Assembly: GCF_000025945.1 (NCBI RefSeq)
Contig: NC_006138.1
Span: 2,280,001 to 2,312,000 of the forward strand
Direction: 5' to 3'
Source: Desulfotalea psychrophila LSv54
GTDB lineage: Bacteria; Desulfobacterota; Desulfobulbia; Desulfobulbales; Desulfocapsaceae
Length of the DNA: 32,000 nt
A program made the translations under genes and the position numbers. Below, one piece after another: positions 10,588 through 28,252 of this stretch (the stretch's first letter is position 1; each line of letters starts with the position of its first letter). The notes beneath the pieces are model-generated. The model was not told the origin of the DNA, did no database searches, and was given only the letters and a program-made list of their open reading frames with translations.

Positions 10588-10593
10588 TTGGTT

Positions 10594-10893
10594 TCAACCT
10601 TTCTTGGCAGAAGATCCAGCAACCTGCTGTTTGTCGCATTTACTCTTAGCCTGGGCGCCAACTTTTATTTCAGCAATTGCAGTTTCATTACTGCGTACTC
10701 GGGCATCAAGGCCATTAAGCTTATCGCTTAGGGTTGTCAGGGCGCGGGTATTGTTGTCCAGTGACACTTTCATCACACTATTGGTATTATTCACATCTCG
10801 TTTCCACAACCAGACAACCAGGCCGCTTAGCAACACAAAGATCCACGCCGCAAACAAAGGATTACCAGTAAAGAACAGTTCAACCCCTTTCAT
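10594..10893 (-). CDS. membrane-anchored coiled-coil protein, possible spanin-like lysis accessory
   Basis: 99 aa. N-terminal TM segment (LFAAWIFVLLSGLVVWLW) followed by a heptad-like helical region. Immediately downstream of the holin-like gene. Confidence 0.4.
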   Translation of the reverse strand: MKGVELFFTGNPLFAAWIFVLLSGLVVWLWKRDVNNTNSVMKVSLDNNTRALTTLSDKLNGLDARVRSNETAIAEIKVGAQAKSKCDKQQVAGSSAKKG

Positions 10894-11543
10894 TTAATCG
10901 TTCCTTCAGAGTGGCTCTGTGGGCTTATAAGGCGTGCGGCACCCTTCGCTGCCATGCGATCCCCAAACCACCAACAAACTGCCGTGGTAGTCAGATAGAG
11001 CAGGGAGCAAGTAACCTGGGTGACAATTTCAGCCGATTGTGTCGTGGTTAAAGCACCGCCAGAACTCTCTAGAATCGACCAGGCCCGACGACTAATCCAG
11101 GTGGAGAGTATCAACAGATAGAGAGTGATCCCTGGCCGAGCAAAACCCTTAACCGTATCCACCAGACCAAAAAGAATACAGATGAATACTCCGGCTGGCT
11201 GAGCCAAAATCGCTACCCAGCCCGTGGTGGAAAAAAGTTTTCCGGCCAGGGCCGTGGAAAGGGTCGGTTTATTGGCAACAATAAGGTGGGCGGCATAAGC
11301 CTCGGTTTCAGCTAGATGTAGGGCTCCTTCAGTCTGTACTCGAGCAACCCTGATATTGGCCTCGGTCTCAGCTAGCATCGCTTGACTCTCCGCCTGTACT
11401 AGCTTCAGCTCATGCTCACGCCCCTGGGCCCTATCCTTCATATCAAGTTCTCTAATCTTTCTCTGATTCCAACTGGACCAAATGGTTCCCGCAAGACCCG
11501 TAATTCCACCAAAAAGAATATCCCAAGGCATATCAATCTCCAC
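10890..11543 (-). CDS. holin-like multi-TM protein (resembles the 3-TM GTA-type holin family)
   Basis: 217 aa. An N-terminal Ala/Glu-rich helical segment is followed by three hydrophobic segments (GWVAILAQPAGVFICILFGLV, ITLYLLILSTWI, VTCSLLYLTTTAVCWWF). Sits between the putative lysin and the spanin-like gene. Confidence 0.55.
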   Translation of the reverse strand: MEIDMPWDILFGGITGLAGTIWSSWNQRKIRELDMKDRAQGREHELKLVQAESQAMLAETEANIRVARVQTEGALHLAETEAYAAHLIVANKPTLSTALAGKLFSTTGWVAILAQPAGVFICILFGLVDTVKGFARPGITLYLLILSTWISRRAWSILESSGGALTTTQSAEIVTQVTCSLLYLTTTAVCWWFGDRMAAKGAARLISPQSHSEGTIK

Positions 11544-11967
11544 TCTCTATAGTAAGTTCAAAATCTTCACCGCCCATGGCTTTGTGCAGCCTGCGGATGG
11601 TTGCTTTTGAAAGTAAAACGGCTCGCTGTCCAGCCAGGTGCCCACGTTTCTTACCATGTAATATGCAGCCGAGAACATTGGTTACATAGCCTTTGGTCCT
11701 GTCGCCGGCCACATTGCCTGAATGATGCAGAACATGCGATCGGCCCTCTACATTGCGCACCTGGTAAACCCAGCCAAAACGAGGAGACTTTACCAAACGA
11801 CAGAGATAGACACCCAAAGGAATAGAGGAGACATTGGGCCGATTATCCCGCCACGGCAGCTCCAAGGTGTAGGAGCGAAATCCCCGTTCAGGGCAGCGAA
11901 AGACTCCCTCTGTGCCCTGGTCCGTGCTCTTCTCGCGTCTTAAGTTTGCCTGGAGCATATTCACCAT
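11533..11967 (-). CDS. DUF5675-like protein, candidate endolysin / cell-wall enzyme
   Basis: TLELPWRDNRPNVSSIPLGVYLC...SPRFG...VRNVEGRSHVLHHSGN...GCILHG matches my memory of the DUF5675 pattern (TLE..IP.G.Y...SP+F..VPGR..IL.H.GN...GCIL.G). It is the first gene after the late promoter and terminators, next to the holin. Confidence 0.5.
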   Translation of the reverse strand: MVNMLQANLRREKSTDQGTEGVFRCPERGFRSYTLELPWRDNRPNVSSIPLGVYLCRLVKSPRFGWVYQVRNVEGRSHVLHHSGNVAGDRTKGYVTNVLGCILHGKKRGHLAGQRAVLLSKATIRRLHKAMGGEDFELTIESGD

Positions 11968-11976
11968 TTTTTACAT

Positions 11977-12011
11977 AAAAAAACTCCGTACTCTTGAACT
12001 AAGAGACGGGG
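11977..12011 (-). terminator. late-leader terminator 2
   Basis: Minus strand reads CCCCGUCUC-loop-GAGUACGGAG followed by U7, 10 nt before the 11967 start codon. Confidence 0.55.
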
Positions 12012-12030
12012 CTAAAAAAGAGAATGACAC

Positions 12031-12063
12031 AAAAAAAGACCCAATCTCAACCGAGACGGGGCC
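12031..12063 (-). terminator. late-leader terminator 1
   Basis: Minus strand reads CCCCGUCUC-GGUU-GAGAUUGGG followed by UCU7. Shares the GCCCCGTCTC arm with terminator 2. Confidence 0.55.
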
Positions 12064-12097
12064 TTGCCTGTGCACATTTTCTCACCTTATTTAATTT

Positions 12098-12126
12098 ATG
12101 ATAGCCAGCTGTGGACAACTTTGCAA
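12098..12126 (-). promoter_or_regulatory. sigma70-like late promoter (PR'-like)
   Basis: Minus strand has TTGCAA (12126-12121), a 17-nt spacer and TATCAT (12103-12098). It lies 20 nt downstream of the Q-like gene and upstream of the two terminators. Confidence 0.5.
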
Positions 12127-12145
12127 ACAGGATCGACAGAGTTTT

Positions 12146-12526
12146 CTAATCAATGCATATAGACGATGAAGAGCTTTCACTATCCTTTTCTAACCAGGCA
12201 GCAACCCAAGATTCACCCATACTAACCAGCTGAGTAACCTTGCGCCGATCCATCCCCAGTTCTCGGGCAACATAACTCGTATTCTCCTTACTCAGATAAT
12301 AGACCATAAGGGCTTCGGCAACGGATGCCTTTCTTTGTCTCAATCGGGCAATGGCAGTATCAATGAGCATTGCCTCCTCGTCACTGATCTCTACGGGCTG
12401 CAGCTCATAAGCAGGATAGTCCTGCCAGCAACAACTTATAGCAAGTCTGCCATAACCAAGATGGGGCACAGGTGATACACGAAGCCATAGGGCATAGTTT
12501 GTCAATTTCTCAGATATAAACTCCAT
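12146..12526 (-). CDS. Q-like late-gene antiterminator / late activator (sigma70 region-4-like HTH)
   Basis: 126 aa. The C-terminal part (ALMVYYLSKENTSYVARELGMDRRKVTQLVSMGESWVAAWL) looks like the HTH of phage antitermination Q / sigma r4 proteins. The gene, promoter, terminators and lysis-gene order is lambdoid. Confidence 0.45.
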   Translation of the reverse strand: MEFISEKLTNYALWLRVSPVPHLGYGRLAISCCWQDYPAYELQPVEISDEEAMLIDTAIARLRQRKASVAEALMVYYLSKENTSYVARELGMDRRKVTQLVSMGESWVAAWLEKDSESSSSSICID

Positions 12527-12574
12527 ACCTCCCTCCTATTGCATAAAACATAACTTGGCTAAGATAATTTTTCG

Positions 12575-12612
12575 ATCTCAAGAAGTGGCGGGTTCAAATC
12601 CCGACATCGGAA
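12575..12612 (+). other. tRNA 3'-end-like fragment, putative att core
   Basis: GCGGG-TTCAAAT-CCCGA forms a T-arm with one mismatch, followed by CATCGGA-A (acceptor 3' strand plus discriminator). No matching 5' acceptor, D arm or anticodon arm lies upstream, so it is a fragment. It is 48 nt from the integrase stop. Confidence 0.45.
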
Positions 12613-12659
12613 AAATAAAATACCATTTATTATTAAATATTTAAGTATATGGACAGCCT

Positions 12660-13883
12660 CTATTCCTGTTCATTGTGACCAAAACTGTGTCCAAAATCTT
12701 CCTTGCCCTCGACTCTTGTTCCAGAGAACTGTTTTTCCACGGAAAACCCGTCTAAACTCTTCAAATTGGGGATATAGCGACCATAGGTTCTATAAACCAT
12801 TGAGGTATCCACATGGCCCAGGGTTTTGGCCACCCATTCAGGTGTCTCTCCCAGGGCGAGGGCCCAAGAGGCGAAGGTATGCCTAGTCTCATACATACGC
12901 CGATATTGCAGTTCCAAACCTGCAAATGCTTCAACCCATACCACACTGCGCAGTTTGTCCTGTGAAATAGGCAGGCGATCTTTGTTGACGAAAACATAGG
13001 GACTGTTGATTCCCGCCGTCAGTTTACGCTGGCGCAACAGAATTCTCCGTAATCCCGGTCGCAATAAGAGCCTGCGTCTACTCTCATGGGTTTTGAGATC
13101 TTCCTTCTCTCTTCCCCGTACCCTGCTTAACTCTATGTGGATATATTCATGGTCGATGGCAACCCATTTCAGGGCCACCTGTTCCGAGGGCCTCAATCCC
13201 GTCTGTACGGCAAATTCAAAATAGGGCCGATACCAAGGGGATATATGCGTTATAAAAACCTGCCACTCTTCAAAACTAAAGGGTTGAACTCGAAACTTCC
13301 TGGGCCGTGGAAGTTTACACCGGGTAAAGGGATCCGGAAAATCCAGCCAGGCATACTCATCCACGCAATCCTCTATAATTACTCGCAGGGGGATGATGAC
13401 GTTGCGAATACGTTTAGCCGAAAGTGGTTGCCCCTGTTCACTCCTCTTGCCCTTCATGGTGGCAATAAACTTCCTCATTCGGGCAGAGGTTATCTCCGCA
13501 AAATTCAAATCACGAAAATAGGGCAAAACATGTCTCTGTAGAGCACTTTGGTAGTCCCGAATCTGATTCTCCGTCATCCCACTTCCCATATCGGCAAACC
13601 ACTGCAGTACATAATCACCAAAAAGAAGTTCAGAGGGGTGGGTGGTCACTTCCCTACCCTCCAGCTCAGCAAAAAAGGCCCTTCTCCTACTTCTGGGAAA
13701 ACGCTTGCCAAAACTGAAAACCCCATTATCTATCTCTGCCATAATCAAATCGAGCTGCCGCCGAAGAATTTGCCGGTTCTCTCTGGTGTCGACAAGGCCA
13801 GATGATTCACGAACGCGCTCCCCCATATAGCGAAAATCAAACCAGATCCTGTTGTGACGGACATAGAGAGTTCCCCTACCCAC
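12660..13883 (-). CDS. int: tyrosine site-specific integrase with N-terminal arm-binding (DUF3596-like) domain
   Basis: 407 aa with a GTG start. N-terminus (LYVRHNRIWFDFRYMGERVRESSGLVDTRENRQ) fits the arm-binding domain. The catalytic region has ...GLRPSE..., TRHTFASWAL and LGHVDTSMVYRTYGRY (R..HxxR..Y). Confidence 0.9.
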   Translation of the reverse strand: MGRGTLYVRHNRIWFDFRYMGERVRESSGLVDTRENRQILRRQLDLIMAEIDNGVFSFGKRFPRSRRRAFFAELEGREVTTHPSELLFGDYVLQWFADMGSGMTENQIRDYQSALQRHVLPYFRDLNFAEITSARMRKFIATMKGKRSEQGQPLSAKRIRNVIIPLRVIIEDCVDEYAWLDFPDPFTRCKLPRPRKFRVQPFSFEEWQVFITHISPWYRPYFEFAVQTGLRPSEQVALKWVAIDHEYIHIELSRVRGREKEDLKTHESRRRLLLRPGLRRILLRQRKLTAGINSPYVFVNKDRLPISQDKLRSVVWVEAFAGLELQYRRMYETRHTFASWALALGETPEWVAKTLGHVDTSMVYRTYGRYIPNLKSLDGFSVEKQFSGTRVEGKEDFGHSFGHNEQE

Positions 13884-14106: not shown

Positions 14107-14170
14107 GAATTTCCAACCATCGCCAAAATACTCTCCTCCAAGAGTACACCCACTTTTTACCGCTGGACGT

Positions 14171-14200
14171 GTATGGCCGGCTATGGCCGCCTATGGCCGT
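14171..14200. repeat. three tandem 10-bp repeats, TATGGCCG core
   Basis: gTATGGCCGg, cTATGGCCGc and cTATGGCCGt, at the GC-rich to AT-rich transition. Confidence 0.9.
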
Positions 14201-14557
14201 CTACATGCTATTAAAGGGTCTTGACCTGTTTTTTTGGAGGGTGATTTTTTACTGGTTAGGATGGGGGAAATGAGGTTATTTGCTTCTAATAATCTTTTTG
14301 CTTGATTAGTATTGTTGGTGGTGCTTAAGTATTTTGGATTATAAAGAAATTTTCGTAAGTTGATTAGGTCCTTCGTAGAGGGCGAGGGATTTGGATGATG
14401 TGGTGATATTCAGTTATCGCTCGTGTCGAATGACATCAGGGAATCGGGTAATAATTTTTTGTCTGTTTTGGCTAAATCAATGCGTTATTGGCGTAAGGAC
14501 TTTCATTGTTTTCGCTTATTTAATATTTAAAACGATAATATCTTCTAAGGAATATTC

Positions 14558-16003
14558 ATGTACAAATTACGATTACAAGATGTTTATCTTGGTGAAAATG
14601 ATGGCAAAAAAGAAGCTGTCTATAGGTCAGATTTTGAAAGATATTTTGTAGATATAGATGACAACTATGAAAAGCTAAAACAAGATAAGTATTTTTTGGT
14701 TTTAGGGAGAAAGGGATCAGGTAAGACCTATTTGGGGCAATATGTTAAGAGAATGTCTTCAAAAGATCCTCTCCATTTTTGTGAGATCAGTTCATATAAA
14801 GACTTTAAATTTCAAGAGTTAATTCAATTGAAATCAGGTGATATCACTCCAAATGAATATTATGAAATATGGAGATGGTTGCTATTACTTGACATAGGGA
14901 AACACTGCCTCGCTGACAACGGCATAGAGGATTGTGATGACAAGAGTAAACTTCATGCATTCCCTGAGGCTAATTACAAATCAATCGAAATTGATGCTAA
15001 AAAAATCGTGGAAGTAACACAAAAACAGCAAGTCAGAGGCGGATTCTTAAAATCATTCGTGGATATCTCTGATGGTGAAAAACTAGAGGAAGGAACATAT
15101 CTGGATTATATTGACGACTTGGAAAAGGTTGTCTTTTCCTTGCTCTCTCTTTCAGAGAGTTCGTACACCTCAATTTATGATGAGTTAGATGATCGTTTTA
15201 GAAATGATGATTATTACCGCAACTCAATAATCAGTCTAATTAAGGCCGCAGATTACATTAATTTAAAAGCAATAGAAGTAAACTCCAAAGCTAAGGTAGT
15301 AATATTACTGCGGTCTGATATTTTCTCTATATTTAACGATCCAGATCTAAACAAAATAAAAAGAGTTAATACGTTGAAGATTGATTGGGGAACTCGTGTG
15401 TCAGTCGATACTCCTCTAATTAAAATGGTAATTTATAAAGCAAAACAATCTAGTTCCTTAATGTCTGTACTTTCCAATGAGCAGATTTTTCGTCACTTAT
15501 TTCCACAAGATATTAATTACATTAATCCTGAGAGATATATACTTGAGAGATCTTTTTTTCGACCAAGGGATGTAATTACAATATTGAATTTAATCATAGA
15601 AAAATATCCAAATTCCGAATATTTTGGTTGGAAAAGTTTTCGAGTCGTTAAGCAGGATTATTCAGAGTATCTGCTTGATGAAGTAAGGAATGAAATGTTT
15701 GGACATTACCTCGATGAAGAAATCGATAACGCACTTAAATTACTAAAAAATTACAATAAGCATTTTATTGAGTATGATGAATTGAAAAAATATATGACAA
15801 TAAACTCTTATCACTACCCTGGCCTTGATTTAGAAAAAATGCTCATTGGTTTATTTAAATTTAATGCAATAGGAAATAAGTGGTTCAATGAGTACAAAAA
15901 AAAGCAATATTATACTTGGGCTCATCGTGATGAGAAAGCTGATTTAGATTTAAATAAGACTATTGTTATCCACCTTGGTCTAAGGGAAGCGCTATCAATG
16001 TGA
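14558..16003 (+). CDS. P-loop NTPase (KAP/STAND-like), cassette-borne
   Basis: 481 aa. Walker A is LGRKGSGKTY. Walker B is SIYDELDDRF. Later motifs are LLRSDIF and FFRPRDVITILN. AAGGA RBS. Followed by attC-like site 1. Confidence 0.7.
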   Translation: MYKLRLQDVYLGENDGKKEAVYRSDFERYFVDIDDNYEKLKQDKYFLVLGRKGSGKTYLGQYVKRMSSKDPLHFCEISSYKDFKFQELIQLKSGDITPNEYYEIWRWLLLLDIGKHCLADNGIEDCDDKSKLHAFPEANYKSIEIDAKKIVEVTQKQQVRGGFLKSFVDISDGEKLEEGTYLDYIDDLEKVVFSLLSLSESSYTSIYDELDDRFRNDDYYRNSIISLIKAADYINLKAIEVNSKAKVVILLRSDIFSIFNDPDLNKIKRVNTLKIDWGTRVSVDTPLIKMVIYKAKQSSSLMSVLSNEQIFRHLFPQDINYINPERYILERSFFRPRDVITILNLIIEKYPNSEYFGWKSFRVVKQDYSEYLLDEVRNEMFGHYLDEEIDNALKLLKNYNKHFIEYDELKKYMTINSYHYPGLDLEKMLIGLFKFNAIGNKWFNEYKKKQYYTWAHRDEKADLDLNKTIVIHLGLREALSM

Positions 16004-16044
16004 TGTGAACTACCGTCTAACATCACATCGATGAGATATTAATC

Positions 16045-16105
16045 AGACAACCAACTGTTCCACTGGACCCGCAAACAGCGCGTGCCAGTGAACGCCACGT
16101 TATAC
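16045..16105 (+). repeat. attC-like site 1
   Basis: AGACAAC-CAACT-GTTcCACTGG-(18 nt)-CCAGTGAAC-GCCAC-GTTATAC. One extrahelical base on the L'' arm. Confidence 0.65.
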
Positions 16106-16142
16106 AAAATAAAAATACCAGTAATTAAAATGGGAGCATAGA

Positions 16143-16904
16143 ATGGCATCAAAGTATTTGTCATCCCTATCGAAGGATGATTATTTAGAGCTTACAAAAA
16201 AACTGTGGAACATTCAGAATCATAAATGTTTTATATGTGAAGAAGAAATTGATTTAGATTTAAACACTACAAATATTGACCATATTGTACCTTTGGCAAA
16301 TAAGGGTAAAGATGCTGAGGTGAATTTTGCAGTCACACATGAAAGTTGTAACAAGTCTAAACAGGACGCAAATTTAAAGATTGCAAAAATACTACAAAAA
16401 CTTAGTAAAATTCAAAAGTCAATACAAAGTAAAACAAGTAAATCAGCGTCACTCAAGGATATACTAAAAAGCTATAATGGTTCAAAGTATGAGTTTAAAT
16501 ACAAGATTGAAGGTATGGAATTAAAATATTCATTTTCAGATATTGGAGATAACAAAACATACCAAACACCAATTTATACTGACAATCTTTCGAAAGAACA
16601 AACATGCTTTATAGAAGTTCCAGTTGAGTACCTATATCATGATGAAATTATTAACCCACGCGGGATAAATAATAGTATCGGAAAGCTTATTAAAGAGTTT
16701 GATAAGCAAAACCCACAATTGCATCTTAGTCTCGCTCGGATAGAAGATGACAGGTTAAAAATATTTGATGGGCAGCATAAAGCCGGTGCTCAAATTTTAT
16801 TAGGAACTAAAAAATTGGTTGTGCGAGTTTTTTTGGAACCAAATATAGACCGGTTGACAGAAACAAATACAATGCTGGAGTACTCTACGGCAAATTGCTT
16901 TTGA
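16143..16904 (+). CDS. HNH nuclease plus start of DGQHR (DndB/ParB-like) domain; 5' part of a frameshifted gene
   Basis: HNH motif is CFICEEEIDLDLNTTNIDHIVPLANKGKDAEVNFAVTHESCNKSKQD. DGQHR-type motif is IFDGQHKAGAQILLG. The ORF stops at 16904, while the +1 frame is already open from 16858. Confidence 0.7.
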   Translation: MASKYLSSLSKDDYLELTKKLWNIQNHKCFICEEEIDLDLNTTNIDHIVPLANKGKDAEVNFAVTHESCNKSKQDANLKIAKILQKLSKIQKSIQSKTSKSASLKDILKSYNGSKYEFKYKIEGMELKYSFSDIGDNKTYQTPIYTDNLSKEQTCFIEVPVEYLYHDEIINPRGINNSIGKLIKEFDKQNPQLHLSLARIEDDRLKIFDGQHKAGAQILLGTKKLVVRVFLEPNIDRLTETNTMLEYSTANCF

Positions 16905-16914
16905 TAAATCAATA

Positions 16915-17757
16915 ATGAGGCAATTGAACAATACGCTTTATTCGGAAAGGGTTAAAAAGTATCAAGTCGCCCATAACCTAAAAGAAGATGATTATTCTTT
17001 TTCAGAGCAGCAGCTTATTGATTTTTTCAAAGGAGATGGGGCCAATATAAAAAAATACATTATTGACTCTATAAAACATTCAATAACGAATGCAAAAGAC
17101 AATAAACTAAAAGACTATATTGATTTTGACGGGAAAGCCAAAGAGTTGCCTATTTCATACAGTGCTTTTGATAAAACTATTTTGTCTTCATTTGTCAATT
17201 CTAAACTTGTTTTAAAAACAGCGATAGATTCAAAAACAGATGAAGGGTTAAACCCAAGAGAATTGGAAATAAATCAAATTGTAAAAATTCTAAGTCTACT
17301 GGCTGAGAATATTTACATGAACAAGTTTTTGCCTGAATTAGGAACAGCACGAGTTGAAAAGAAAATTATTGATAAAAAGGATACAAATATAACAGACGAT
17401 CATTTAATAGCATACAGAATCAGCAAAGAAGAGATTCTGTATAATTGGTTGCAATATCTGAAAAAAGTCATCACAACATACTTTGCAAATACTGGTAAAA
17501 TGGTTGCTGAAGAAAAAATTTTTCAGACACCGTTTGATGAACAACTTTGGATAAATATTGGAAATTTTATCAAAAATCTTAGTCAACTACCACTGTGGAA
17601 AGACAGATCAATGGCAAGTACTATATTTTCTGGTAAAAAGAATTATGATTATTGGAGAGAGATCTTTGAAACAGGTAGTAGTTTAGATGGAGCAATTGTT
17701 TTGACTAATCCGTTAAATTTTATAGAAATGATAAAGGGTACCGAAAATTTTGTATAA
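16915..17757 (+). CDS. 3' part of the HNH-DGQHR gene
   Basis: 280-aa ORF in the +1 frame relative to 16143-16904. That frame is open from 16858 (..STLRQIAFDKSIMRQL..). Both parts sit within a single cassette between attC 1 and attC 2. Confidence 0.6.
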   Translation: MRQLNNTLYSERVKKYQVAHNLKEDDYSFSEQQLIDFFKGDGANIKKYIIDSIKHSITNAKDNKLKDYIDFDGKAKELPISYSAFDKTILSSFVNSKLVLKTAIDSKTDEGLNPRELEINQIVKILSLLAENIYMNKFLPELGTARVEKKIIDKKDTNITDDHLIAYRISKEEILYNWLQYLKKVITTYFANTGKMVAEEKIFQTPFDEQLWINIGNFIKNLSQLPLWKDRSMASTIFSGKKNYDYWREIFETGSSLDGAIVLTNPLNFIEMIKGTENFV

Positions 17758-17810
17758 CAAAAAAATGCAGGGGACGCAAAAAGCCGCGCCCCTGATTTTA
17801 GGCGTTAAAT
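17752..17810 (+). repeat. attC-like site 2
   Basis: GTATAAC-AAAAA-AATgCAGGGGaCGC-AAAAAGCC-GCGCCCCTGATTTT-AGGC-GTTAAAT. Two extrahelical bases on L''. The ORF stop TAA lies inside R''. Confidence 0.7.
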
Positions 17811-17839
17811 TTACCAAATAAAATAGGTTGCAATAACAA

Positions 17840-18967
17840 ATGTCACAAGTTGATTTGATTCGCCAAGAACTTGAGTTGGTAAATTTCCCTAGTAAAGAAA
17901 TACTACCCCTCTATCCAGATTTAATTGAAACTGTAACCAAAGCAATTTATTTAGCACCTCACGAGAACAAAGAGCCTTACTGGGGGATAATTCTTTCTAA
18001 TAATACACCAACTTCTCCGCATGAATTAGTAGATGATTTTAAAGATTCTTATTGTGATGGAAAAAGAACCTTTGGATTTTCCTCTAATGGAAGCAATGAG
18101 TTAAAAACTGTAGTTTTCCAAAGAGAAATGAATAACATAGATCTTCTTGAACTATGTAATAATAAGCAAACTTGTATCATCAACAGACAAGGGAATACTC
18201 TCAAAATATATTTTAATAATACAATTTATATTTGCGAAAATAGAGTTTGGAAAGTACTGGAAAAAGTTGACGCTCAAATAGTTGAAATAAAAAAACACTA
18301 TAGTGCTGTTGACGCAGATCTCGTCAGAAAATTGCTGACTTACTCATTCCACAATCTTTCTACCAATAAAATTGGTGCCACAATAATATATTGGCTTAAG
18401 GACGACTTTACTTCTACCTATGCAACCCTGCCGGACTCGATAAGTCTTGATTTTAACAATGAAAATCATCAGGAAATATTAAAACAATACCTTAGAAATA
18501 ATGATGGAGCAATTGTCATAAATTCAAGTGGCAAGATAATCGGTGGCAAAGCACACTTAAGTTTTTCTGATGACAGTAAATCCTTTATCCAAATTAAAGA
18601 CAAGGGAACCAGACATAACTCAGCAGCTAGATTCTCTTTCGATAATTCAAAATCCATTGTTATTACAGTCTCAGAGGACGGTCCTGTTTCAGTTTTTTCT
18701 GAGGGGAAAAATATTGCCAATTTAAGTTCCATTGATCCTTTTGAACAAAATAAAATTATTCATGAAATTGCAGAAGAAAATGATGCGATGTCCTATGAAG
18801 ATAACTTTAATATAACTTGCAGTAAGTGCGGGAAAACCTTTTATGTAAGTGTATTAACTGTCTCTGGTTGGCGAGAATGGGAAAATGAAAGATGTGATAT
18901 TTGTGGTACAGAAATTCATTCCGCAAAGTGCTTTACAATAAACTCAAGATTAATAAAAACTATCTAA
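17840..18967 (+). CDS. DAC (DisA_N / diadenylate cyclase fold) domain protein with unknown N-terminal domain and C-terminal zinc ribbon
   Basis: NKIGATIIYW, NNDGAIVINSSGKIIGG, KGTRHNSAARFS and IVITVSEDGPVSVFSEG align motif for motif with CdaA/DisA (KIGALIVI, HDGAVII, GTRHRAA, VVSEETGxIS). The C-terminus has CSKCG...CDICG. Confidence 0.8.
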   Translation: MSQVDLIRQELELVNFPSKEILPLYPDLIETVTKAIYLAPHENKEPYWGIILSNNTPTSPHELVDDFKDSYCDGKRTFGFSSNGSNELKTVVFQREMNNIDLLELCNNKQTCIINRQGNTLKIYFNNTIYICENRVWKVLEKVDAQIVEIKKHYSAVDADLVRKLLTYSFHNLSTNKIGATIIYWLKDDFTSTYATLPDSISLDFNNENHQEILKQYLRNNDGAIVINSSGKIIGGKAHLSFSDDSKSFIQIKDKGTRHNSAARFSFDNSKSIVITVSEDGPVSVFSEGKNIANLSSIDPFEQNKIIHEIAEENDAMSYEDNFNITCSKCGKTFYVSVLTVSGWREWENERCDICGTEIHSAKCFTINSRLIKTI

Positions 18968-19037
18968 CCAGGCGTTTAACCCGTTCGCTATGCTCACTCG
19001 GACTCGCTGAAGCTCGCTGGTTAACTTAACGTTATGA
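18962..19037 (+). repeat. attC-like site 3
   Basis: ATCTAAC-CAGGC-GTTtAACC-(37 nt)-GGTTAAC-TTAAC-GTTATGA. The ORF stop TAA lies inside R''. Confidence 0.6.
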
Positions 19038-19046
19038 ATTAAAACC

Positions 19047-19694
19047 ATGATCGATCAAATTGTTACTATAATCGGAGGCTCATACGTCGAGCCAATTTGT
19101 ACCCTCCTTGAAAAGTTGGAAAATTACGACCAACCTAAAGTCGGGCCGTTGGGTTCTGGCTATTATATCAATGGATATTCAGCATCAATTTGCCTTTTAA
19201 GCATCGCACTTCTTGAGTCTTACGTAATGAGAGTAAGATATATCAATGAAGCCAGTGAGAACGAAATCAACAGAATGCCCGTAGGAAAATATTTGGCCAA
19301 TCTATACGAAGATTTCCCTATGCTTGATGAAGTAGGTGAACTTTTTGTATTACGTGACACTATCACTCACAATCACCTGTGGGAACTATACTTAGATAGA
19401 AATGAAGAAGAAATTGGCCTCTCAGAAGAAATCAGAAAAAGCACGGGTGACTGGAAGTATTCAAATTACGTTGATCTAGATTTGAAGCAAACTAAAAAAC
19501 TGCAATTTACTGTTGTCCCAATAAGTATAGGTAGGTATGAGGTTATAACTGTTCTTAAAAATGTATGGAAGGTACTAATATATCTAGAAAACAAAGACTT
19601 AAGTCAATGCCCTGTTTCCGCTCAACACTATAAATATAAAGGCCAAATGCTAAATTTAGGTCAAATAGCTGAAGTCGTTGATAGATATATATAA
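19047..19694 (+). CDS. hypothetical cassette protein, possible HEPN-like (Rx4H) domain
   Basis: 215 aa, mostly helical in character. VLRDTITHNH contains an R-D-x3-H match to the HEPN R[NDH]xxxH motif. No obvious RBS. Confidence 0.3.
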   Translation: MIDQIVTIIGGSYVEPICTLLEKLENYDQPKVGPLGSGYYINGYSASICLLSIALLESYVMRVRYINEASENEINRMPVGKYLANLYEDFPMLDEVGELFVLRDTITHNHLWELYLDRNEEEIGLSEEIRKSTGDWKYSNYVDLDLKQTKKLQFTVVPISIGRYEVITVLKNVWKVLIYLENKDLSQCPVSAQHYKYKGQMLNLGQIAEVVDRYI

Positions 19695-19699
19695 TAATT

Positions 19700-19828
19700 T
19701 CATAACAAGGTGTTAAAAAGGGACTGCGTGAGGCTCGGCGTTTAAAAGTTCCGAGTTAGACCAAAAAGAAATCTAAATCAAAAAAGTAAATACTAAAGGC
19801 CCCGCAGCCCCTTAACTCAACGATAAAT
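19700..19828 (+). repeat. attC-like site 4 (long, VCR-like) with non-canonical R' GATAAAT
   Basis: TCATAAC-AAGGT-GTTAAaaaGGGaCTGCG ... CGCAGCCCCTTAAC-TCAAC-GATAAAT. Confidence 0.5.
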
Positions 19829-19848
19829 CGGACCGCTACGACGCTCCA

Positions 19849-20011
19849 ATTTATCGACCCGAGGTTAAGTTCCCTCAGATTGCCAACCGGATCGTCAAGC
19901 GCTCCGGTTATCAAACCAATGAAACCGACTGCGACCATTTTCAATTCAGGACCTGCTGTGCGGCGCCCAAATTATAAAAATAACCTCGCGGCTCATCTCG
20001 GGTCGTTCGGT
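19849..20011 (+). repeat. attC-like site 5 of an ORF-less cassette
   Basis: R'' ATTTATC plus GACCCGAG (19849-19863) pairs with CTCGGGTC plus R' GTTCGGT (19997-20011). R'' is the exact complement of the preceding GATAAAT. Confidence 0.4.
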
Positions 20012-20057
20012 GGGTAAACAATTGCAGCATTAAATTTGCACACAACAGAAAATATAA

Positions 20058-20879
20058 ATGTACATAATTGAATTACTATTAAGTCTTTTGTTAGCAACCT
20101 TATTGCTCTTTATTGTCGGTAACCAAACAGTTCTCTCCTGTTTGGATAAAGTTAATAATTTTGTAGTGTTCATTGGTGAATGCAACATTACGTTGTTTTT
20201 AAAAAGCTTTAAACACAACATTCACAATTTCTATAATAAACTAGAAATAATATCATTTTTTGAAAGTATTAAGCCCATTGTTGATGTCTTTGCAGGACTT
20301 GCTGCAATTCTCGGTATTTTAATTCCTCTTATCGCCTTTCTGCGCAGTGAACGAGACGCTATTAAAATTAAGTTAGTAAAAGTAACTGAGAATTTTTCCT
20401 CCCAAAAATGTTCTTTTTCATTTACCTTTGCCAACTGTAAAAATTATCCTGTTACGCTTCACGAAATAAATATTTACAATAAAAGATTTTATCTAGTAAC
20501 AGAAAGTACCGCTCACTCTGTTAATTTAAGTGGGCCTGGCTTTTCTATAAGTGACAGGGTTTACACAAACAAGCTTGGAAACGAAATTCCTGCATCTGGT
20601 AATTTTTCAATTATTCTAAGTAACGGTAACATTTTTGAGCATGATGATTTATATGTTCACTTGCATACTTCAGATGGCTTTCAAACTATTAAGTGTAAAA
20701 ATATTGAGTATTTAAACACTGGCGAACTAGAAACTTTCCACAACATGTATGATATTGATGATGGGCTTAAAGCAAGGTTAATTTATTTTGGATTACAGGT
20801 CCCATGTAATTACATAAATACAAAGGCTAGAGTAGCTGCAAAGAAATATTCTTTTGGCAAAAATGAAACTAATGAGTAG
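20058..20879 (+). CDS. hypothetical membrane protein (cassette-borne)
   Basis: 273 aa. Two N-terminal hydrophobic segments (LLLSLLLATLLLFIV, VFAGLAAILGILIPLIAF) precede a soluble domain with beta-strand character. Followed by attC-like site 6. Confidence 0.55.
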   Translation: MYIIELLLSLLLATLLLFIVGNQTVLSCLDKVNNFVVFIGECNITLFLKSFKHNIHNFYNKLEIISFFESIKPIVDVFAGLAAILGILIPLIAFLRSERDAIKIKLVKVTENFSSQKCSFSFTFANCKNYPVTLHEINIYNKRFYLVTESTAHSVNLSGPGFSISDRVYTNKLGNEIPASGNFSIILSNGNIFEHDDLYVHLHTSDGFQTIKCKNIEYLNTGELETFHNMYDIDDGLKARLIYFGLQVPCNYINTKARVAAKKYSFGKNETNE

Positions 20880-20888
20880 GCAATATAC

Positions 20889-21019
20889 ATCGAACAAGTC
20901 GCTCAAGAGGGGCGGCAAGAGGCTATGCTGTTTGCCAAACTCAAAGTTGAATCAAAACTTATAAATACTAAATCAGTTTCGGGGTAATTCACTTGCCGCC
21001 CTTTAGCTTAACGTTAGCT
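20889..21019 (+). repeat. attC-like site 6 (long, VCR-like)
   Basis: ATCGAAC-AAGTC-GCTcAAgaGGGgCGGCAAG ... CTTGCCGCCCTTTAGC-TTAAC-GTTAGCT. The CTCAAGAGGG arm resembles Vibrio-type chromosomal attC repeats. Confidence 0.65.
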
Positions 21020-21033
21020 GTTAAAAGGTATAA

Positions 21034-21162
21034 ATGCAGAAACATATTACAGGTATATGCATAACCACTATATGGTTTATTTTGGTAGGTATTACTGTAT
21101 TTTTAAATTGGGAATCAGCTACGAAATTAGGTCGTGATGCCAAAACGTTGAAGACATGGTAG
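21034..21162 (+). pseudogene. small membrane-protein ORF of the next cassette, interrupted by an IS1-like end
   Basis: ATG at 21034 after AAAAGG. MQKHITGICITTIWFILVGITVFLNWESATKL runs straight into the IS inverted repeat at 21130 and stops at 21160-21162. Confidence 0.4.
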
Positions 21163-21425
21163 CGTGTGATTTTTTTAAGGTTATGATATGGCTACAGTAA
21201 AAGTACCTTGTCGGTTTTGTGGTAGCACTGATGAGGTAAGGCGGCACGGCAAGGGCAGTAATGGAAATCAAAGATTTCGGTGTTCAGATTGCAAGCGAAC
21301 CTTCCAGCTAGCCTACGCCTATGAAACCGATTCGAAATGAAAGATACAGTCCTGGCAATGATGGCTGCTTCGTGATACTACAAGAGTTATTAAGGTTGGC
21401 TGAGTGGTGCACATGGGAGCCACGT
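21130..21425 (+). mobile_element. IS1-family element remnant (left inverted repeat plus decayed insA)
   Basis: GGTCGTGATGCCAAAACGTTGAAG resembles the IS1 IR (GGTGATGCTGCCAACTTACTGAT). A 50-aa ORF at 21188-21340 (MATVKVPCRFCGSTDEVRRHGKGSNGNQRFRCSDCKRTFQL...) matches the InsA zinc finger. HTH-like pieces (DTVLAMMAA, RDTTRVIKVG) follow in shifted frames. No right end was found. Confidence 0.7.
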
Positions 21426-22245: not shown

Positions 22246-23238
22246 TCAATCTGCCATTGTATTTGAAATTTGTGAAAACTTTTTTTCAACCCTCATAAAG
22301 GCATCAATAATATCAGGAGCAAACTGTTTTCCCCTCTCCGCTTTTAATATTCGACAGGACTCTTCATGGGAAATAGCTTCCTTGTAACAGCGTTTACTCC
22401 GTAGCGCATCATAGACATCCGCAAGCGACATAATCCTTGCAGACAGGGGTATTTCTTCTCCCAGCAGGCCTTGAGGATAGCCTCCACCATCCCATCTTTC
22501 ATGATGGGACATTACAATCTCAATGGCTATTGTAAAAAAAGATTCAAATTCAAGCTTCTCTTCCGCTGCCCTAAGAATCTCGGCGCCAAGCTCGCAATGT
22601 TTCTTGATTATTTTAAATTCTTCGTCGGTGAGCTTCCCCGGTTTTCTTAAAATATGGTCAGGAATACCAACCTTGCCAATATCATGAACAGGAGCTACTG
22701 TAACAAGGTTTTCTATATAAGCATGTGTCAACTGTGAGTTATACCTGGGGGAGCGAGAAAGTTCTTCCGCCAATGCCTTAACGTACTGAGAAGTTCTTTC
22801 CAGATGTTTACCCGTCTCCTCGTCCCTCATTTCAGCCTCATATGCTAAAGCAAAAATGGTGACATTTTCAACCTGAGTGAGTTGAATGTTTTTACTAATA
22901 ATTTTTTCATGCCTCTTTTTAATGGAGACAAGCATATATGCCTGTAGTAATATTCCTATAAATACAAATATAGCGCCGAAAAAAAATACAACCGCAGTAA
23001 ATAAAATTCCAACCACATGTATATTAAAAACAAAACAAATCAAAACAGCCAGGTAACCGATAAAGAAAAAACACATTAAAGACAAATGTATTTTGTGTAG
23101 GCGATATATGGTTTTTTTTCTATCCTCTAACAGAGCCTCAATACCTTGAATTGTTAAAACATACTTAACAATACTCACTAACATCACCAGGGCACCCAAA
23201 GCAATAAGCACTAATGAGAGGATTATAATATTATTCAA
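22246..23238 (-). CDS. membrane-anchored HD-GYP domain phosphodiesterase
   Basis: 330 aa. About four N-terminal TM segments, then VAPVHDIGKVGIP (HD) and SHHERWDGGGYPQGL (GYP). Confidence 0.9.
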   Translation of the reverse strand: MNNIIILSLVLIALGALVMLVSIVKYVLTIQGIEALLEDRKKTIYRLHKIHLSLMCFFFIGYLAVLICFVFNIHVVGILFTAVVFFFGAIFVFIGILLQAYMLVSIKKRHEKIISKNIQLTQVENVTIFALAYEAEMRDEETGKHLERTSQYVKALAEELSRSPRYNSQLTHAYIENLVTVAPVHDIGKVGIPDHILRKPGKLTDEEFKIIKKHCELGAEILRAAEEKLEFESFFTIAIEIVMSHHERWDGGGYPQGLLGEEIPLSARIMSLADVYDALRSKRCYKEAISHEESCRILKAERGKQFAPDIIDAFMRVEKKFSQISNTMAD

Positions 23239-23658: not shown

Positions 23659-24072
23659 CTATAGCCCCAAGCGCAACGCCTCCTTCTCCTGCCGTATCAG
23701 GCAGGCCCGATTGAAGGCATTTTTCTTCCCATGCTTTTTAATCGAAACGGAGGTTTTGCCCCGCTTTCCCTCGGGCGTCACCCAGGTGGCCTCATAACGT
23801 TCCCGTTTTTCATTGAGCAGCACCCCTATAACACCGGTTCCTCCACGGCTTTTGCTGAACATCATCTGGTCCGTTCTGGGTTTGCCAATTTCTTTTTCCT
23901 TCTGGTTACGCCATGCCGTCGCAGCCTGAAGTGCTGATTCATTCCCTCCATTTTTTTTATCTGAAAAAAACTTGCTATGCATACGCCCCTGAAATGTGAT
24001 TCTTACATACCAGCCGTATGTATTCTTTGATTCCTGAGCCACTCTGCTGATGCCCTTAATCTTCATGCTCAT
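23659..24072 (-). CDS. AP2-domain DNA-binding protein (two AP2-like repeats)
   Basis: YGWYVRITFQGRMHSKFFSDKKNGGNESALQAATAWRNQ, and a second repeat GVIGVLLNEKRERYEATWVTPEGKRGKTSVSIKKHGKKNAFNRA. Confidence 0.6.
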   Translation of the reverse strand: MSMKIKGISRVAQESKNTYGWYVRITFQGRMHSKFFSDKKNGGNESALQAATAWRNQKEKEIGKPRTDQMMFSKSRGGTGVIGVLLNEKRERYEATWVTPEGKRGKTSVSIKKHGKKNAFNRACLIRQEKEALRLGL

Positions 24073-24259
24073 CGCCCTCTTCTTCAGGATAAAGTCGTTG
24101 ATTATATGTCAGTTCCCTTTGCCGATGCCCAACTATTTACATGATTCATTAATATTGTTTAACAGAAATAAAATGCTAGAACTATAACTTTTTTTATCCT
24201 ATCTGGAGAAAAGGCTAGGGCGAGAGAGCCAGTCAGCCCGTGACTCTCAGCCCCAATTC

Positions 24260-24781
24260 TCAACCATTTCCTGGTAAAATATCTTTAAATGAAGAACCCT
24301 GGATCCTCTCGGTATTTTCACGGTAAAGCTTCCGTAATTTGTTCTTTTCTACTTCAAAATTGGCCATATCTCCTCGCGCGATAGAGCTGGCTATCCGGGC
24401 CATATATTCTGCCGATTGTTGAGAGCTCAGCACTCCTGCAAGTTGCATGGAGATCACCGCTGAATTCACCGCTCCCAGCTGCTCATCCATCTCCCGTGTC
24501 GGACCCTTTTTTATTACCACGGGAATATCGCGACCAAGTCCTTCCTCAAGTAACAAATGTAATTTGCTCTTTTGCACTTTCGACCAGACAATCTCTCCCG
24601 AGGCGTCAATTCTGCCCACGGAAAAACCGTTTTCCTGAAGCTCTGTCAGAAGTTTTGCAAACCAGACAGTCCCTCCCTTTCCCAGTTCCTTATCTACGGA
24701 TCGTCCATTCTGAGCAGCTCGATAGGCGCAGATAAAATTTTTGATATTCTCTCGGCCGATAATAGCTAAGGGGCCATTCAT
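24260..24781 (-). CDS. hypothetical early-region protein
   Basis: 173-aa ORF whose start overlaps the stop of the replication gene at base 24781. Confidence 0.5.
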   Translation of the reverse strand: MNGPLAIIGRENIKNFICAYRAAQNGRSVDKELGKGGTVWFAKLLTELQENGFSVGRIDASGEIVWSKVQKSKLHLLLEEGLGRDIPVVIKKGPTREMDEQLGAVNSAVISMQLAGVLSSQQSAEYMARIASSIARGDMANFEVEKNKLRKLYRENTERIQGSSFKDILPGNG

Positions 24782-25710
24782 CAGCTCACCTCACAGTCAA
24801 CTCCTGAACTGGCGGGGACAAAAACTTTTCCGGGAGCGTCCCGTGATCTGACTGCCTGCAAATAACTTTCAAACTTGGTGCCAAAGAGAGTGAGGGGCCT
24901 CAGATACTCGCACATTTTCTCATCACTCCCCCACTCCTCAGTCTTGTTATCGATCACCTGCTTAAAATCATCGAAGCGAAAGCCTTCCTGCCAGCGAGCC
25001 CGTATTACCGAGGTGGTTGCCTTGGTGGAGTTCTTGAAATCCTTATCAGTAGCAGCGTTGAGGTAGGAAATAATCTTCGTAAAAGGAATTCTCTCGGACG
25101 CAGACGATACAACCACCGCTGTCACGACAATATTTTTTTCCTGTTCTTGTTCCTGCTCCTGTTCCTGCTCCTGTATTGGCAAGGGTTTACCCAATGGTTC
25201 CCCAAAGGTTTGGGGGATGGTTTCCGCAGGGTCAGTATCAACCATCTCCAGACCTTCTGCCCAACCATCCTGAAACCTCTCCTGTAATTCTTTGCAACCC
25301 GCAACAAAGGTCTCTTGAACCTTCCCCGACAGATACCGTAGATTATTTAAGAACCTACCCAACAGATCCGTCAGGGGTACATCGTGAAGATCCGACAGAT
25401 TGCCCTTGAGCACATTCTCATTTTCCGGATGGTTGTACTTCCACCAGGTGGGGAGATAGAGAACTCTGGCGCCTCTGTCGTACTCCCAGGCAAACCTCTC
25501 CAGCACAACGAGGAAACCTCGCTGAAACCTCTGCTGCTTCATACCAAGATCTTCGGCGGCAAGGGCTACGGAGAATCTAAAGATTCCCACTCTGTTAACC
25601 TGCGCCGAGGTGAAACAGTAAAGAGCGATCAGCTTTTCCTCTGGTTTGAGCTGGTAAAAGACCTCGTCGTCCCACACCCTGGGGTCGACCTTTCTATATT
25701 TAACAGCCAT
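24781..25710 (-). CDS. phage replication/initiation protein with Phg_2220_C-type C-terminal domain
   Basis: IPFTKIISYLNAATDKDFKNSTKATTSVIRARWQEGFRFDDFKQVIDNKTEEWGSDEKMCEYLRPLTLFGTKFESYL matches the conserved phage C-terminus (Phg_2220_C) pattern. Has an (EQ)6 linker. Confidence 0.75.
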   Translation of the reverse strand: MAVKYRKVDPRVWDDEVFYQLKPEEKLIALYCFTSAQVNRVGIFRFSVALAAEDLGMKQQRFQRGFLVVLERFAWEYDRGARVLYLPTWWKYNHPENENVLKGNLSDLHDVPLTDLLGRFLNNLRYLSGKVQETFVAGCKELQERFQDGWAEGLEMVDTDPAETIPQTFGEPLGKPLPIQEQEQEQEQEQEKNIVVTAVVVSSASERIPFTKIISYLNAATDKDFKNSTKATTSVIRARWQEGFRFDDFKQVIDNKTEEWGSDEKMCEYLRPLTLFGTKFESYLQAVRSRDAPGKVFVPASSGVDCEVS

Positions 25711-25762
25711 GGCATACCTTCATGTCTATAAGAGGGGACACATTCTGCTGCCGGCCCTGTCT

Positions 25763-26470
25763 TTACAGGCTATGCAGAATCGCAATATCAGCACAGATTA
25801 TTGATGTGCGAAAAAAATCGGCTATCTTCTCGATCGCCTCAATCTTCCAGGCACCACCATCGGCCTCAAACAATGCACAACTATGATCTTTGGTGAGACG
25901 CAGAACAAAGTTACTGCAGGGCTGTTCTAATTCTGGAAAGGTTCTATAGGGAGCAATGGAGACAGGGTTGGGCAAAGCTACTTTTTCCACATTGGCCAGG
26001 CCGGTTTTTACCTCGGCAATCTGAGTCACTCCATCGTCATAGAGCCCTACATCGGATCTGGTGACCATATTTCCCACCATCTTTAAGATGGCGCCGATCA
26101 CTTCGTCCTGGACAAACTGTGCCTGCAGGGAAACGATAAACTCTTCCACATCATAGTACCGGCCAAAAACAAAAGGATCATAGGCACAGCTGGACTCCAA
26201 AAAAGTCTCCCGGTCTCGGTGATCAGGATCCAGCCCACTCAAAAGAACCACCTTGCTCGGCGAGAGCACGTTCACCACAAAAGCCACTCCTTCCTCGGTA
26301 AGGTTGTTTGCATAGTCGGCTATGGCCTGCAAACTGTGCACTTCGAGTCCCATTGCCAGTGGTCTTGCCAGTCTATGCAGGCGTTTATTACTAAGGACCA
26401 CCCCACTTTCTTCACGAAAATTGGGTTTGCTCATCTCTTCAATTTTTTCTATAAACGTTCTATCAATCAT
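25763..26470 (-). CDS. hypothetical early-region protein (possibly DUF2303/YfdQ-like)
   Basis: I take the start as the ATG at 26470 (MIDRTFIEKIEE...) after GAGGAA. The 309-aa track ORF overlaps the upstream gene and is probably over-extended. The family guess comes from memory only. Confidence 0.45.
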   Translation of the reverse strand: MIDRTFIEKIEEMSKPNFREESGVVLSNKRLHRLARPLAMGLEVHSLQAIADYANNLTEEGVAFVVNVLSPSKVVLLSGLDPDHRDRETFLESSCAYDPFVFGRYYDVEEFIVSLQAQFVQDEVIGAILKMVGNMVTRSDVGLYDDGVTQIAEVKTGLANVEKVALPNPVSIAPYRTFPELEQPCSNFVLRLTKDHSCALFEADGGAWKIEAIEKIADFFRTSIICADIAILHSL

Positions 26471-26504
26471 CTCGAGTTCCTCGGTTATGGTAAATTTGTT
26501 GAGA

Positions 26505-27069: not shown

Positions 27070-27088
27070 GGATTAAAGGTCATTGGGG

Positions 27089-27397: not shown

Positions 27398-27412
27398 TAT
27401 ATTCCTATATGT

Positions 27413-27718: not shown

Positions 27719-27730
27719 CTTTGCTCCATT

Positions 27731-28235: not shown

Positions 28236-28252
28236 GCTAAGAGCATACGTTT

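Follow-up and report, generated by a model that had tools for sequence, protein, structure and literature searches.

What a diadenylate cyclase (DAC)-like gene does on its own within an island of nuclease and NTPase genes is the question raised by DP2016 of Desulfotalea psychrophila LSv54 (CAG36745.1 / WP_011189257.1 / UniProt Q6ALN0). This 375-amino acid (aa) open reading frame (ORF) occupies positions 17840–18967 on the + strand (ATG at 17840, stop codon at 18965–18967) of the 32,000-nucleotide stretch of NC_006138.1 analysed here (positions 2,280,001–2,312,000), referred to below as the window. A first, sequence-only reading had taken it for a self-contained cassette encoding a DAC-fold protein with an unfamiliar N-terminus and a zinc ribbon, away from any housekeeping cdaA context. 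Our analysis lends good support to a three-domain protein, with a DACNK domain, a DAC domain and a C4 zinc ribbon in that order and, as far as sequence comparisons can tell, to an integron-type cassette that carries the gene and moves as a single-gene unit between the arrays of different bacteria. DP2016 is probably an active, regulated cyclase. The reading that we favour, to which we attach about an even chance, is that of a self-contained nucleotide cyclase gated by a sensor, with a product that would be read by receptors from other loci and with phage as its most plausible cue.

Profile, sequence and structure comparisons all identify the DAC domain. The Pfam DAC/DisA_N profile (PF02457), whose recovery had been proposed as a check, matched DP2016 above its cutoff of 27 with 64.7 bits (E 7e-18; profile positions 3–118 of 119), and every motif quoted in the sequence-only reading was located, in the order given there (Table 1). 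A phmmer search against the Protein Data Bank (PDB) retrieved CdaA (6gyw, E 4e-5) with DGA and GTRH aligned, and the full-length AlphaFold2 (AF2) model (predicted local distance difference test score, pLDDT, 85; predicted TM-score, pTM, 0.78) matched DisA (3c1y), CdaA (6hvm) and CdaM (8ofj) in Foldseek, each with probability 1.0. A chance resemblance to DACs is excluded by far. The equivalog models for CdaA and DisA both failed on DP2016 and neither cdaR nor glmM is found near it, in agreement with the non-housekeeping context described initially.

Exhaustive HMMER searching yielded 752 representatives with E ≤ 1e-3, of which 115 remain at E ≤ 1e-30; about 115 at the stricter threshold have the DACNK-type DAC architecture. 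Conservation was assessed in 78 full-length relatives from among these representatives (median 394 aa, pairwise identity at most 50%), to which the three-part architecture is common. D222 and G256 occur in all 78, G223, A224, R258, S278 and D280 in 77 each, and H259 in 74. Together with the conservation of the ribbon cysteines described below, this points to strong purifying selection on the DAC catalytic residues and the four cysteines across these diverged sequences. In the RHR motif, the canonical third Arg is replaced by Asn in DP2016 (R258-H259-N260), as had been noticed at the outset. Position 260 is Thr in 60 relatives, Asn in 11, Ser in three and never Arg, so RHN appears to be a family signature, GTRH[T/N]S, and not a lesion.

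The missing Arg could also be taken to mean that DP2016 is a catalytically dead nucleotide binder acting as a receptor or scaffold, for example a c-di-AMP (cyclic di-AMP) or ATP sensor coupled to the ribbon: DP2016 has RHN, none of the 78 relatives has RHR, and in Mycobacterium tuberculosis DisA the motif is required for ATP binding and activity, the sole documented inactive mutant being the triple RHR-to-AAA replacement (PMC3328451). We regard this as decidedly improbable given that DGA, GTRH and SxDG are near-invariant in very diverged sequences, the pattern of a working active site, and that defence-associated DACs which keep just "select residues" of the DAC motifs are nevertheless active (according to a preprint).

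Contrary to the sequence-only reading, in which the first ~165 residues matched nothing recognisable, residues 7–140 correspond to the Pfam domain DACNK (PF21753; 161.6 bits, E 1e-47, cutoff 27, profile positions 2–145 of 146), described in Pfam as a "probable sensor domain" of DACs. Near-invariant in it among the 78 relatives are E10, H41, E42, G49, [D/N]73, G74, R135 (63/78) and W137. DACNK is said to stem from a classification of DACs into 22 architecture families made by Galperin in 2023. Passages in two preprints cite Galperin 2023 for the sister domains DACNG and DACNH and for the 22-family scheme. Structure searches recovered DACs with the full-length model, as reported above, but gave no significant match in the PDB or in BFVD (Foldseek) for a model of the DACNK domain alone (pLDDT 85.9). 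DAC domains, from at least ten organisms, make up 27 of the 50 best weak PDB matches to the latter (E 0.046–1.6, TM-score about 0.3). The order of secondary structure elements (alpha, beta-beta, alpha, beta-beta, alpha, then beta strands) also resembles that of DACs, and DACNK has a Gly at the first strand and [D/N]G before the third, where DACs have GA(T) and DGA, respectively. These likenesses hint that DACNK may be a DAC-like domain that has degenerated. The idea that it is a recognisable duplicate of DAC was rejected, with an hhalign probability of 2% against the DAC domain and Foldseek matches below significance.

The four-Cys zinc ribbon proposed initially is present as CSKC and CDIC, and C327, C330, C352 and C355 are each found in all 78 relatives. 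In the AF2 model the C-terminal ribbon domain has five strands, and Foldseek returned no structural match for it. The ribbon is missing from a related Acidimicrobiia clade: loci from Acidimicrobiia and other Actinomycetota (L010–L039 and many metagenome loci, L043–L122) encode the C-terminal part of DACNK and the DAC domain without ribbon, at about 25% identity, and these likewise lack conserved neighbours.

DisA couples a DNA-binding domain to its DAC domain, and a comparable nucleic-acid scanning checkpoint was among the roles initially suggested for DP2016: the ribbon would bind DNA or RNA and the cyclase would report damaged or foreign nucleic acid. The invariance of the C4 ribbon fits such a role, as does a JGI metagenome annotation that labels the tail of one homologue (P0009) RNA-polymerase-subunit-like. 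DP2016, however, has no helix-hairpin-helix (HhH) domain and scores 25.6 against a cutoff of 201 bits with the DisA model (NF010009, residues 220–289 only); moreover, its C-terminal domain has no structural match and no DNA-repair genes lie nearby, which makes the scanning role highly improbable.

The description of the gene as a self-contained cassette proved to be literally true, in that it lies in an attC-flanked, integron-type cassette without a conserved partner. Its boundaries (Table 1) were set by comparing eight independent copies (window, L001, L002/L003, L123, L124, L125, L126 and L131) that share 37–100% protein identity, the lowest value being that of L131. ATCTAAC (RYYYAAC) is found at the stop codon in all eight and is kept even where the stop has moved upstream (L124–L126). 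A GTTRRRY core site lies 36–43 nt before the ATG in seven of the eight (GTTAGAT in L001, L002, L125, L126 and L131, GTTAGGT in L123 and GTTAAAT in the window), L124 having GTTCAAG instead. Reverse-complementing the 3′ ATCTAAC gives exactly GTTAGAT, as expected if the 5′ TTRRRY and the 3′ site form a single attC in the excised circle. Between copies, nucleotide homology runs from the upstream core site to a point at most about 10 nt from the stop codon: the window and L001 are 85% identical over 1174 nt (17803–18976), and the window and L002/L003 81% identical over 17787–18968, here starting 17 nt before the core site. Close homologues (75–83% identity) on other contigs have entirely different neighbours, and the neighbours differ for every cassette copy.

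The DAC cassette's attC-like site aligns over 39 nt, at 85% identity, with the attC that lies upstream of the L001 copy. Its arm duplex has a z score of -2.5, whereas the whole site folds no better than shuffled sequences (z -0.07). For the hairpin at 17752–17810 the corresponding values are -5.0 (arm duplex) and -2.6 (bottom-strand fold). Structural evidence for the sites is moderate: six of 11 attC-like sites folded better than shuffles (z -2.5 to -5.6) and the other five did not; as a set, the arm duplexes had a mean z of -1.39, compared to 0.01 (SD 0.84, n = 15) in controls. A scan combining regular expressions with folding was neither sensitive nor specific, and was not used but replaced by the comparison of copies. 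The L131 copy is flanked by attC sites that are near-identical 125-nt repeats and that, in our interpretation, resemble those of sedentary chromosomal integrons. At L002, where the copy is from Desulfolithobacter, a 74-nt direct repeat (78%; 8470–8542 and 11459–11532) brackets a block of two cassettes and may be the end of an insertion sequence (IS) or of a miniature inverted-repeat transposable element (MITE).

Table 1. Coordinates of DP2016, its domains and motifs, the cassette that carries it and the surrounding features; nucleotide positions are those of the window.
Feature	Nucleotides	Strand	Residues	Details
ORF DP2016	17840–18967	+		375 aa; DACNK + DAC + zinc ribbon
DACNK domain	17858–18259	+	7–140	Pfam PF21753; presumed sensor/regulatory module
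DAC (DisA_N) catalytic domain	18344–18709	+	169–290	Pfam PF02457
C-terminal zinc-ribbon domain	18791–18952	+	318–371	beta-rich
KIGATIIYW motif	18368–18394		177–185	
DGA motif	18503–18511		222–224	
GTRHN motif	18605–18619		256–260	
SEDG motif	18671–18682			DAC domain
TVSEDGPVSVFSEG motif			276–289	
CSKC motif	18818–18829		327–330	
CDIC motif	18893–18904		352–355	
Mobile unit, integron-type gene cassette	17805–19031	+		from the TT after the G of GTTAAAT to the G of the downstream GTTATGA
R′-type core site GTTAAAT (GTTRRRY), 5′ cassette boundary	17804–17810	+		lies 36 nt ahead of the ATG and completes the attC of the cassette before it (17752–17810)
attC-like site of the DAC cassette	18962–19037	+		R″ ATCTAAC overlapping the TAA stop, to R′ GTTATGA
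Array of co-oriented cassettes	14263–21165	+		GC 0.337
Prophage-like, P22-like portal	5960–8260	-		
Prophage-like, small terminase	9831–10436	-		
Prophage-like, antiterminator Q	12146–12526	-		
Prophage-like, integrase	12660–13883	-		
Prophage-like genes on the other side				AP2-domain protein, Phg_2220_C protein, CI-like repressor

DAC domains produce a cyclic dinucleotide just when two of them pair face to face, each bringing one nucleoside triphosphate, as in DisA and CdaA. In the sensor-gated cyclase that we favour, DACNK, perhaps a degenerate DAC-like fold that keeps a G...DG pattern of nucleotide contacts, would gate this pairing, possibly with a contribution from the zinc ribbon, so that c-di-AMP or a related dinucleotide would be made only upon the cue. 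With no effector in the cassette and no conserved neighbour in the family, the signal would have to act in trans, either on host c-di-AMP receptors that control the transport of ions and osmolytes or on effectors for cyclic dinucleotides whose genes lie elsewhere, and cells would likely stop growing or enter a protective state. The most economical idea, already considered in the sequence-only reading, is that DP2016 would signal into host c-di-AMP pathways. If phage is the cue, DP2016 would be a one-gene alarm or abortive-infection module, a stress cue being the alternative. More specifically, DACNK might hold the DAC domain inactive or sense a nucleotide cue, infection would trigger a surge of c-di-AMP or of a variant dinucleotide in the cell, and growth would be arrested by hijacking housekeeping c-di-AMP receptors rather than by a dedicated toxin. 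With no further component required, one integron cassette could be enough for the gene to spread. Such an effector-less alarm, acting through housekeeping receptors, is in itself unlikely. Context in support of the favoured reading as a whole is the low GC content of the cassette (0.335, versus about 0.46 in the flanks), its location inside a prophage-like region and its proximity to an IS1 remnant.

We examined gene neighbourhoods across the family by clustering every ORF up to three genes to either side of 25 three-domain (ribbon-bearing) loci and of 53 ribbon-less ones, and found no partner gene that recurs beyond near-identical contigs. A rough neighbour-joining (NJ) tree, built without bootstraps, places the cassette copies together with those at L130 and L004, apart from a clade with two-component neighbours, and the subclade of the window consists of the cassette copies plus these two, both linked to Type I restriction–modification (R-M) genes. 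At L130 the order is hsdR-hsdM-hsdS-DAC with a 4-nt overlap, and at L004 (Treponema) a Type I R-M S subunit, SpbK (374 bits), an AAA_14 ATPase and a Fic protein are nearby; at L001, the cassette that follows is the PADLOC candidate PDC-S14 (368 bits). Elsewhere in the family, a dCTP-deaminase-like gene and Type I R-M genes are found at L050, and a 2124-aa SNF2/ResIII protein is encoded at L006. It is because of the contexts of the window's subclade that phage infection appears the most plausible cue; that this subclade serves phage defence is possible, at slightly less than an even chance. Across the family as a whole, the survey found defence or mobile contexts, those of the window's subclade among them, many members in non-defence settings and no conserved neighbour.

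A DAC-based anti-phage system, none of which had been known to the sequence-only reading, has meanwhile been validated more than once. In DS-2, DAC catalytic mutants abolish defence (PMC13092281), and preprints of August 2026 report that its DS-2C protein (DACNG-DACNH-DAC) makes c-di-AMP, and that PanDA/Panoptoo comprises a minimal DAC, PanS, which makes c-di-AMP or cyclic UMP–AMP (cUA) and thereby restrains an effector with two transmembrane segments and a beta-rich part (2TM-beta). DP2016 might similarly be an auxiliary or decoy cyclase that needs a cyclic-dinucleotide effector encoded elsewhere, as DS-2C or PanS do, and supply either a second signal for a system of the CBASS type (anti-phage signalling based on cyclic oligonucleotides), or a constitutive signal that restrains a toxic 2TM-beta effector until a phage sponge removes it. 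Besides these precedents, one family locus bears on the idea: at L005 the DACNK-DAC-ribbon gene directly follows genes for Cap15 (264 bits) and for a nucleotidyltransferase that is DS2_2-like (266 bits), and further upstream a CHAT-DAC fusion is encoded. This DS-2-like locus of Nostoc linckia FACHB-104 (5524–10861) encodes the 806-aa CHAT-DAC fusion, Cap15, the nucleotidyltransferase and the DACNK-DAC-ribbon protein, and places two DAC proteins and one cGAS/DncV-like nucleotidyltransferase (CD-NTase) around a single effector, Cap15 being a 2TM cyclic-dinucleotide receptor. A further pointer in the window is a 273-aa protein with two transmembrane segments and a beta-rich C-terminal half, encoded two cassettes downstream of DP2016. 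The auxiliary role is improbable all the same: CBASS-like operon linkage occurs in one of the 25 three-domain loci; the 273-aa protein has neither detectable Cap15 similarity nor any homologue; cassettes recombine independently, and no such neighbour is seen at the other seven copies in the short flanks available; and PanS is minimal, at about 150 aa, with no sensor domain.

The 273-aa ORFan (20058–20879) found only itself among 5.8 billion proteins. Its hydrophobic segments (about residues 1–29 and 70–98) and the C-terminal half make a layout superficially like that of 2TM-beta effectors, and as a Cap15/PanE-like effector it was rejected for want of any Pfam or PADLOC similarity at E ≤ 10 and of any homologue. 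Among the island proteins there were no Cap15 or 2TM effector matches.

Several points weigh against the favoured reading of DP2016 as a sensor-gated cyclase answering to phage. One clade of the family adjoins genes for divergent CheY-like receivers, ferritin, Hpt and sigma-54 regulators; a GGDEF gene is the neighbour at L047, Lon, aldehyde dehydrogenase or planctomycete cytochrome-domain (PSCyt/PSD1) genes are the neighbours of other copies, and one copy adjoins purD. No copies were found in IMG/VR (two pattern sets), INPHARED or PLSDB, no integron integrase lies near any copy, and DP2016 has no match among PADLOC profiles. The attC sites were called manually, not by IntegronFinder. The resemblance of DACNK to DAC domains comes solely from Foldseek matches below significance (E ≥ 0.046, TM-score about 0.3), with hhalign unsupportive; RH[T/N/S] replaces the canonical RHR family-wide, the triple AAA mutant being the only one documented as inactive; and the searched literature holds no experimentally characterised DACNK-type DAC.

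In the clade with two-component neighbours (L007, L020, L127/L128 and the P0160 contig), the gene is always divergently paired with that of a single-domain CheY-like receiver and a ferritin/Dps-like gene is nearby, with further response regulators at L007, L020 and in the P0160 contig (Hpt and a sigma-54 activator in the last), which suggests that members of this clade are part of a phosphorelay.

Defence is only one of the many adaptive functions found on integron cassettes, and DP2016 could be a non-immune accessory c-di-AMP synthase that tunes ion, osmotic, cold or oxidative-stress physiology, its DACNK domain sensing a metabolic cue. The sizeable clade in two-component neighbourhoods with ferritin, the copies that adjoin GGDEF, Lon or purD genes, the absence of a PADLOC match and the Pfam description of DACNK as just a probable sensor domain of DACs are all in line with this. 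By contrast, the window's subclade occurs solely in the form of mobile cassettes or joined to Type I R-M operons, there are defence candidates (PDC-S14) among the neighbouring cassettes, and related DACs that carry sensor domains at the N-terminus (DS-2C) are needed for defence; we consider a non-immune synthase rather unlikely.

The surroundings of DP2016 in the window bear out the nuclease and NTPase neighbours that had been proposed, with an HNH nuclease and a P-loop ATPase identified. The array of co-oriented cassettes contains at least six attC-like sites (16015–16105, 17752–17810, 18962–19037, 19700–19746, 19810–19870 and 20889–21019). As the window has no integron integrase, the array is CALIN-like (cluster of attC sites lacking an integron integrase). 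The adjacent 407-aa recombinase (12660–13883, - strand) has an Arm-DNA-bind_2 domain and its best NCBIfam match is recomb_XerA_Arch (36 versus a cutoff of 220); it was rejected as an integron integrase, being of the phage type and below the cutoff of every NCBIfam integrase model. Two direct 22-nt copies (82% identical) at 14241–14262 and 21166–21187 bracket the whole array, and a 50-aa ORF (21188–21340) that abuts the second is 62–67% identical to the start of plasmid IS1-family transposases. This ORF appears to be a truncated IS1-family remnant, and because of its resemblance we read the 22-nt repeats as IS1-like ends, which points to an IS having placed or truncated the array. Just upstream of the array, in the interval between integrase and first cassette (14164–14203), a 10-bp unit (consensus TGGCCGnCTA) is repeated in tandem three to four times, with overlaps.

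The first cassette (14558–16003) encodes a P-loop ATPase of the Sll1717 family (NF047389, 310 bits; PHROG 13260, 238 bits) that shares 28% identity along its entire length with "FunZ" genes of Bacillus plasmids and gives a weak partial match to DS41_1_antiphage. An HNH endonuclease ORF (16143–16904, with a DGQHK motif near its end) and a 280-aa ORF (16915–17757) follow in different frames, the second frame being open before its ATG. No attC lies between them and hence both share one cassette; 16143–17757 is probably a single frameshifted HNH-DGQHR (DndB-like) gene. Immediately after the DAC cassette, 19047–19694 encodes a soluble 215-aa protein. An R[ND]xxxH motif (RDTITH, RNWGLH, RDDELH) occurs in this and in two other, unrelated, soluble proteins next to DAC cassettes (L001 9129–9830 and L123 1439–2521); the motif brings HEPN RNases to mind, but a HEPN identity for the three was rejected, there being no profile support and no pairwise similarity. 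The next cassette (19747–19870) apparently has no ORF, and the attC-like hairpin at its end (61 nt, z -5.6) folds best of all those in the array.

This low-GC array interrupts a prophage-like region (633–13883 and 23659–29070). Adjoining it, 22246–23238 (- strand, GC about 0.38) encodes a protein with an HD domain of the HD-GYP type (HD_5, 109 bits) and a hydrophobic N-terminus; if an HD-GYP enzyme, it would be a c-di-GMP phosphodiesterase, another second-messenger enzyme in the island. The genes scanned between 5960 and 25710 were phage, cassette or HD-GYP genes. No tRNA is present in the window, and an Rfam scan gave no match, c-di-AMP riboswitches included.

DP2016 belongs to a catalogued DAC family with no experimental characterisation in the searched literature, where its locus tag returned nothing. 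Matching both PF21753 and PF02457 in full and in the same order, it is a member of the DACNK-type DACs, whose cassette mobility, invariant ribbon and RH[T/N/S] signature are described from this analysis. It shares the catalytic fold, DGA and GTRH with the housekeeping cyclases CdaA and DisA. Compared to CdaA (TIGR00159, 39.6 versus 188.8 bits), it has a soluble N-terminus with no transmembrane helices and is not linked to cdaR or glmM; compared to DisA, it has a zinc ribbon at the C-terminus and no HhH domain. Unlike either, it has the third Arg of RHR replaced and is horizontally mobile.

DACs entered the anti-phage field in 2025–2026 with DS-2 and PanDA/Panoptoo, always with a dedicated effector adjacent, and DACNK proteins go unmentioned in the papers on these systems. 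DS-2C (CdaG) is the third gene of the DS-2 CBASS variant and, like DP2016, carries uncharacterised "sensor" domains on the N-terminal side of its DAC domain; it is found in defence islands, with its catalytic residues required for defence, and a DP2016 relative, that at L005, adjoins a DS2_2-like nucleotidyltransferase and Cap15. DP2016 itself, however, has no DACNG or DACNH match in Pfam at E ≤ 1 and scores 11.7 against a cutoff of 630 with DS2_3; it has 375 aa and a ribbon, compared to about 550–575 aa and no reported zinc ribbon in DS-2C, and no CD-NTase or effector is linked to it in the window. With PanS it has in common a DAC domain, mobility and low GC, the PanS DAC having been co-opted for immunity with its product read by a separate protein. 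PanS, though, is constitutively active, without a regulatory domain and in an operon with PanE in >90% of copies, whereas DP2016 has two extra domains and no adjacent effector.

Integron cassettes have been reported in the literature to carry phage defence. The DP2016 cassette resembles those in having a single co-oriented ORF, a short 5′ leader, an attC-like RYYYAAC...GTTRRRY end and small defence-like genes in the array, and differs in that no integron integrase is found in the window or on the contigs of the other copies. The DACNK-DAC-ribbon family stands in contrast to DS-2 and PanDA/Panoptoo by its sensor domain and ribbon, the absence of a partner gene and movement as a single cassette. 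Should DP2016 defend, immune signalling would be wired directly into the essential c-di-AMP network of the host, a new abortive-infection logic and a reason for phages to carry c-di-AMP sponges; should it not, it would be a clean example of a regulatory second-messenger synthase traded via integrons. DAC-based immune signalling itself is already known, and what is new here is a stand-alone, cassette-borne form of DAC with a sensor domain and a ribbon.

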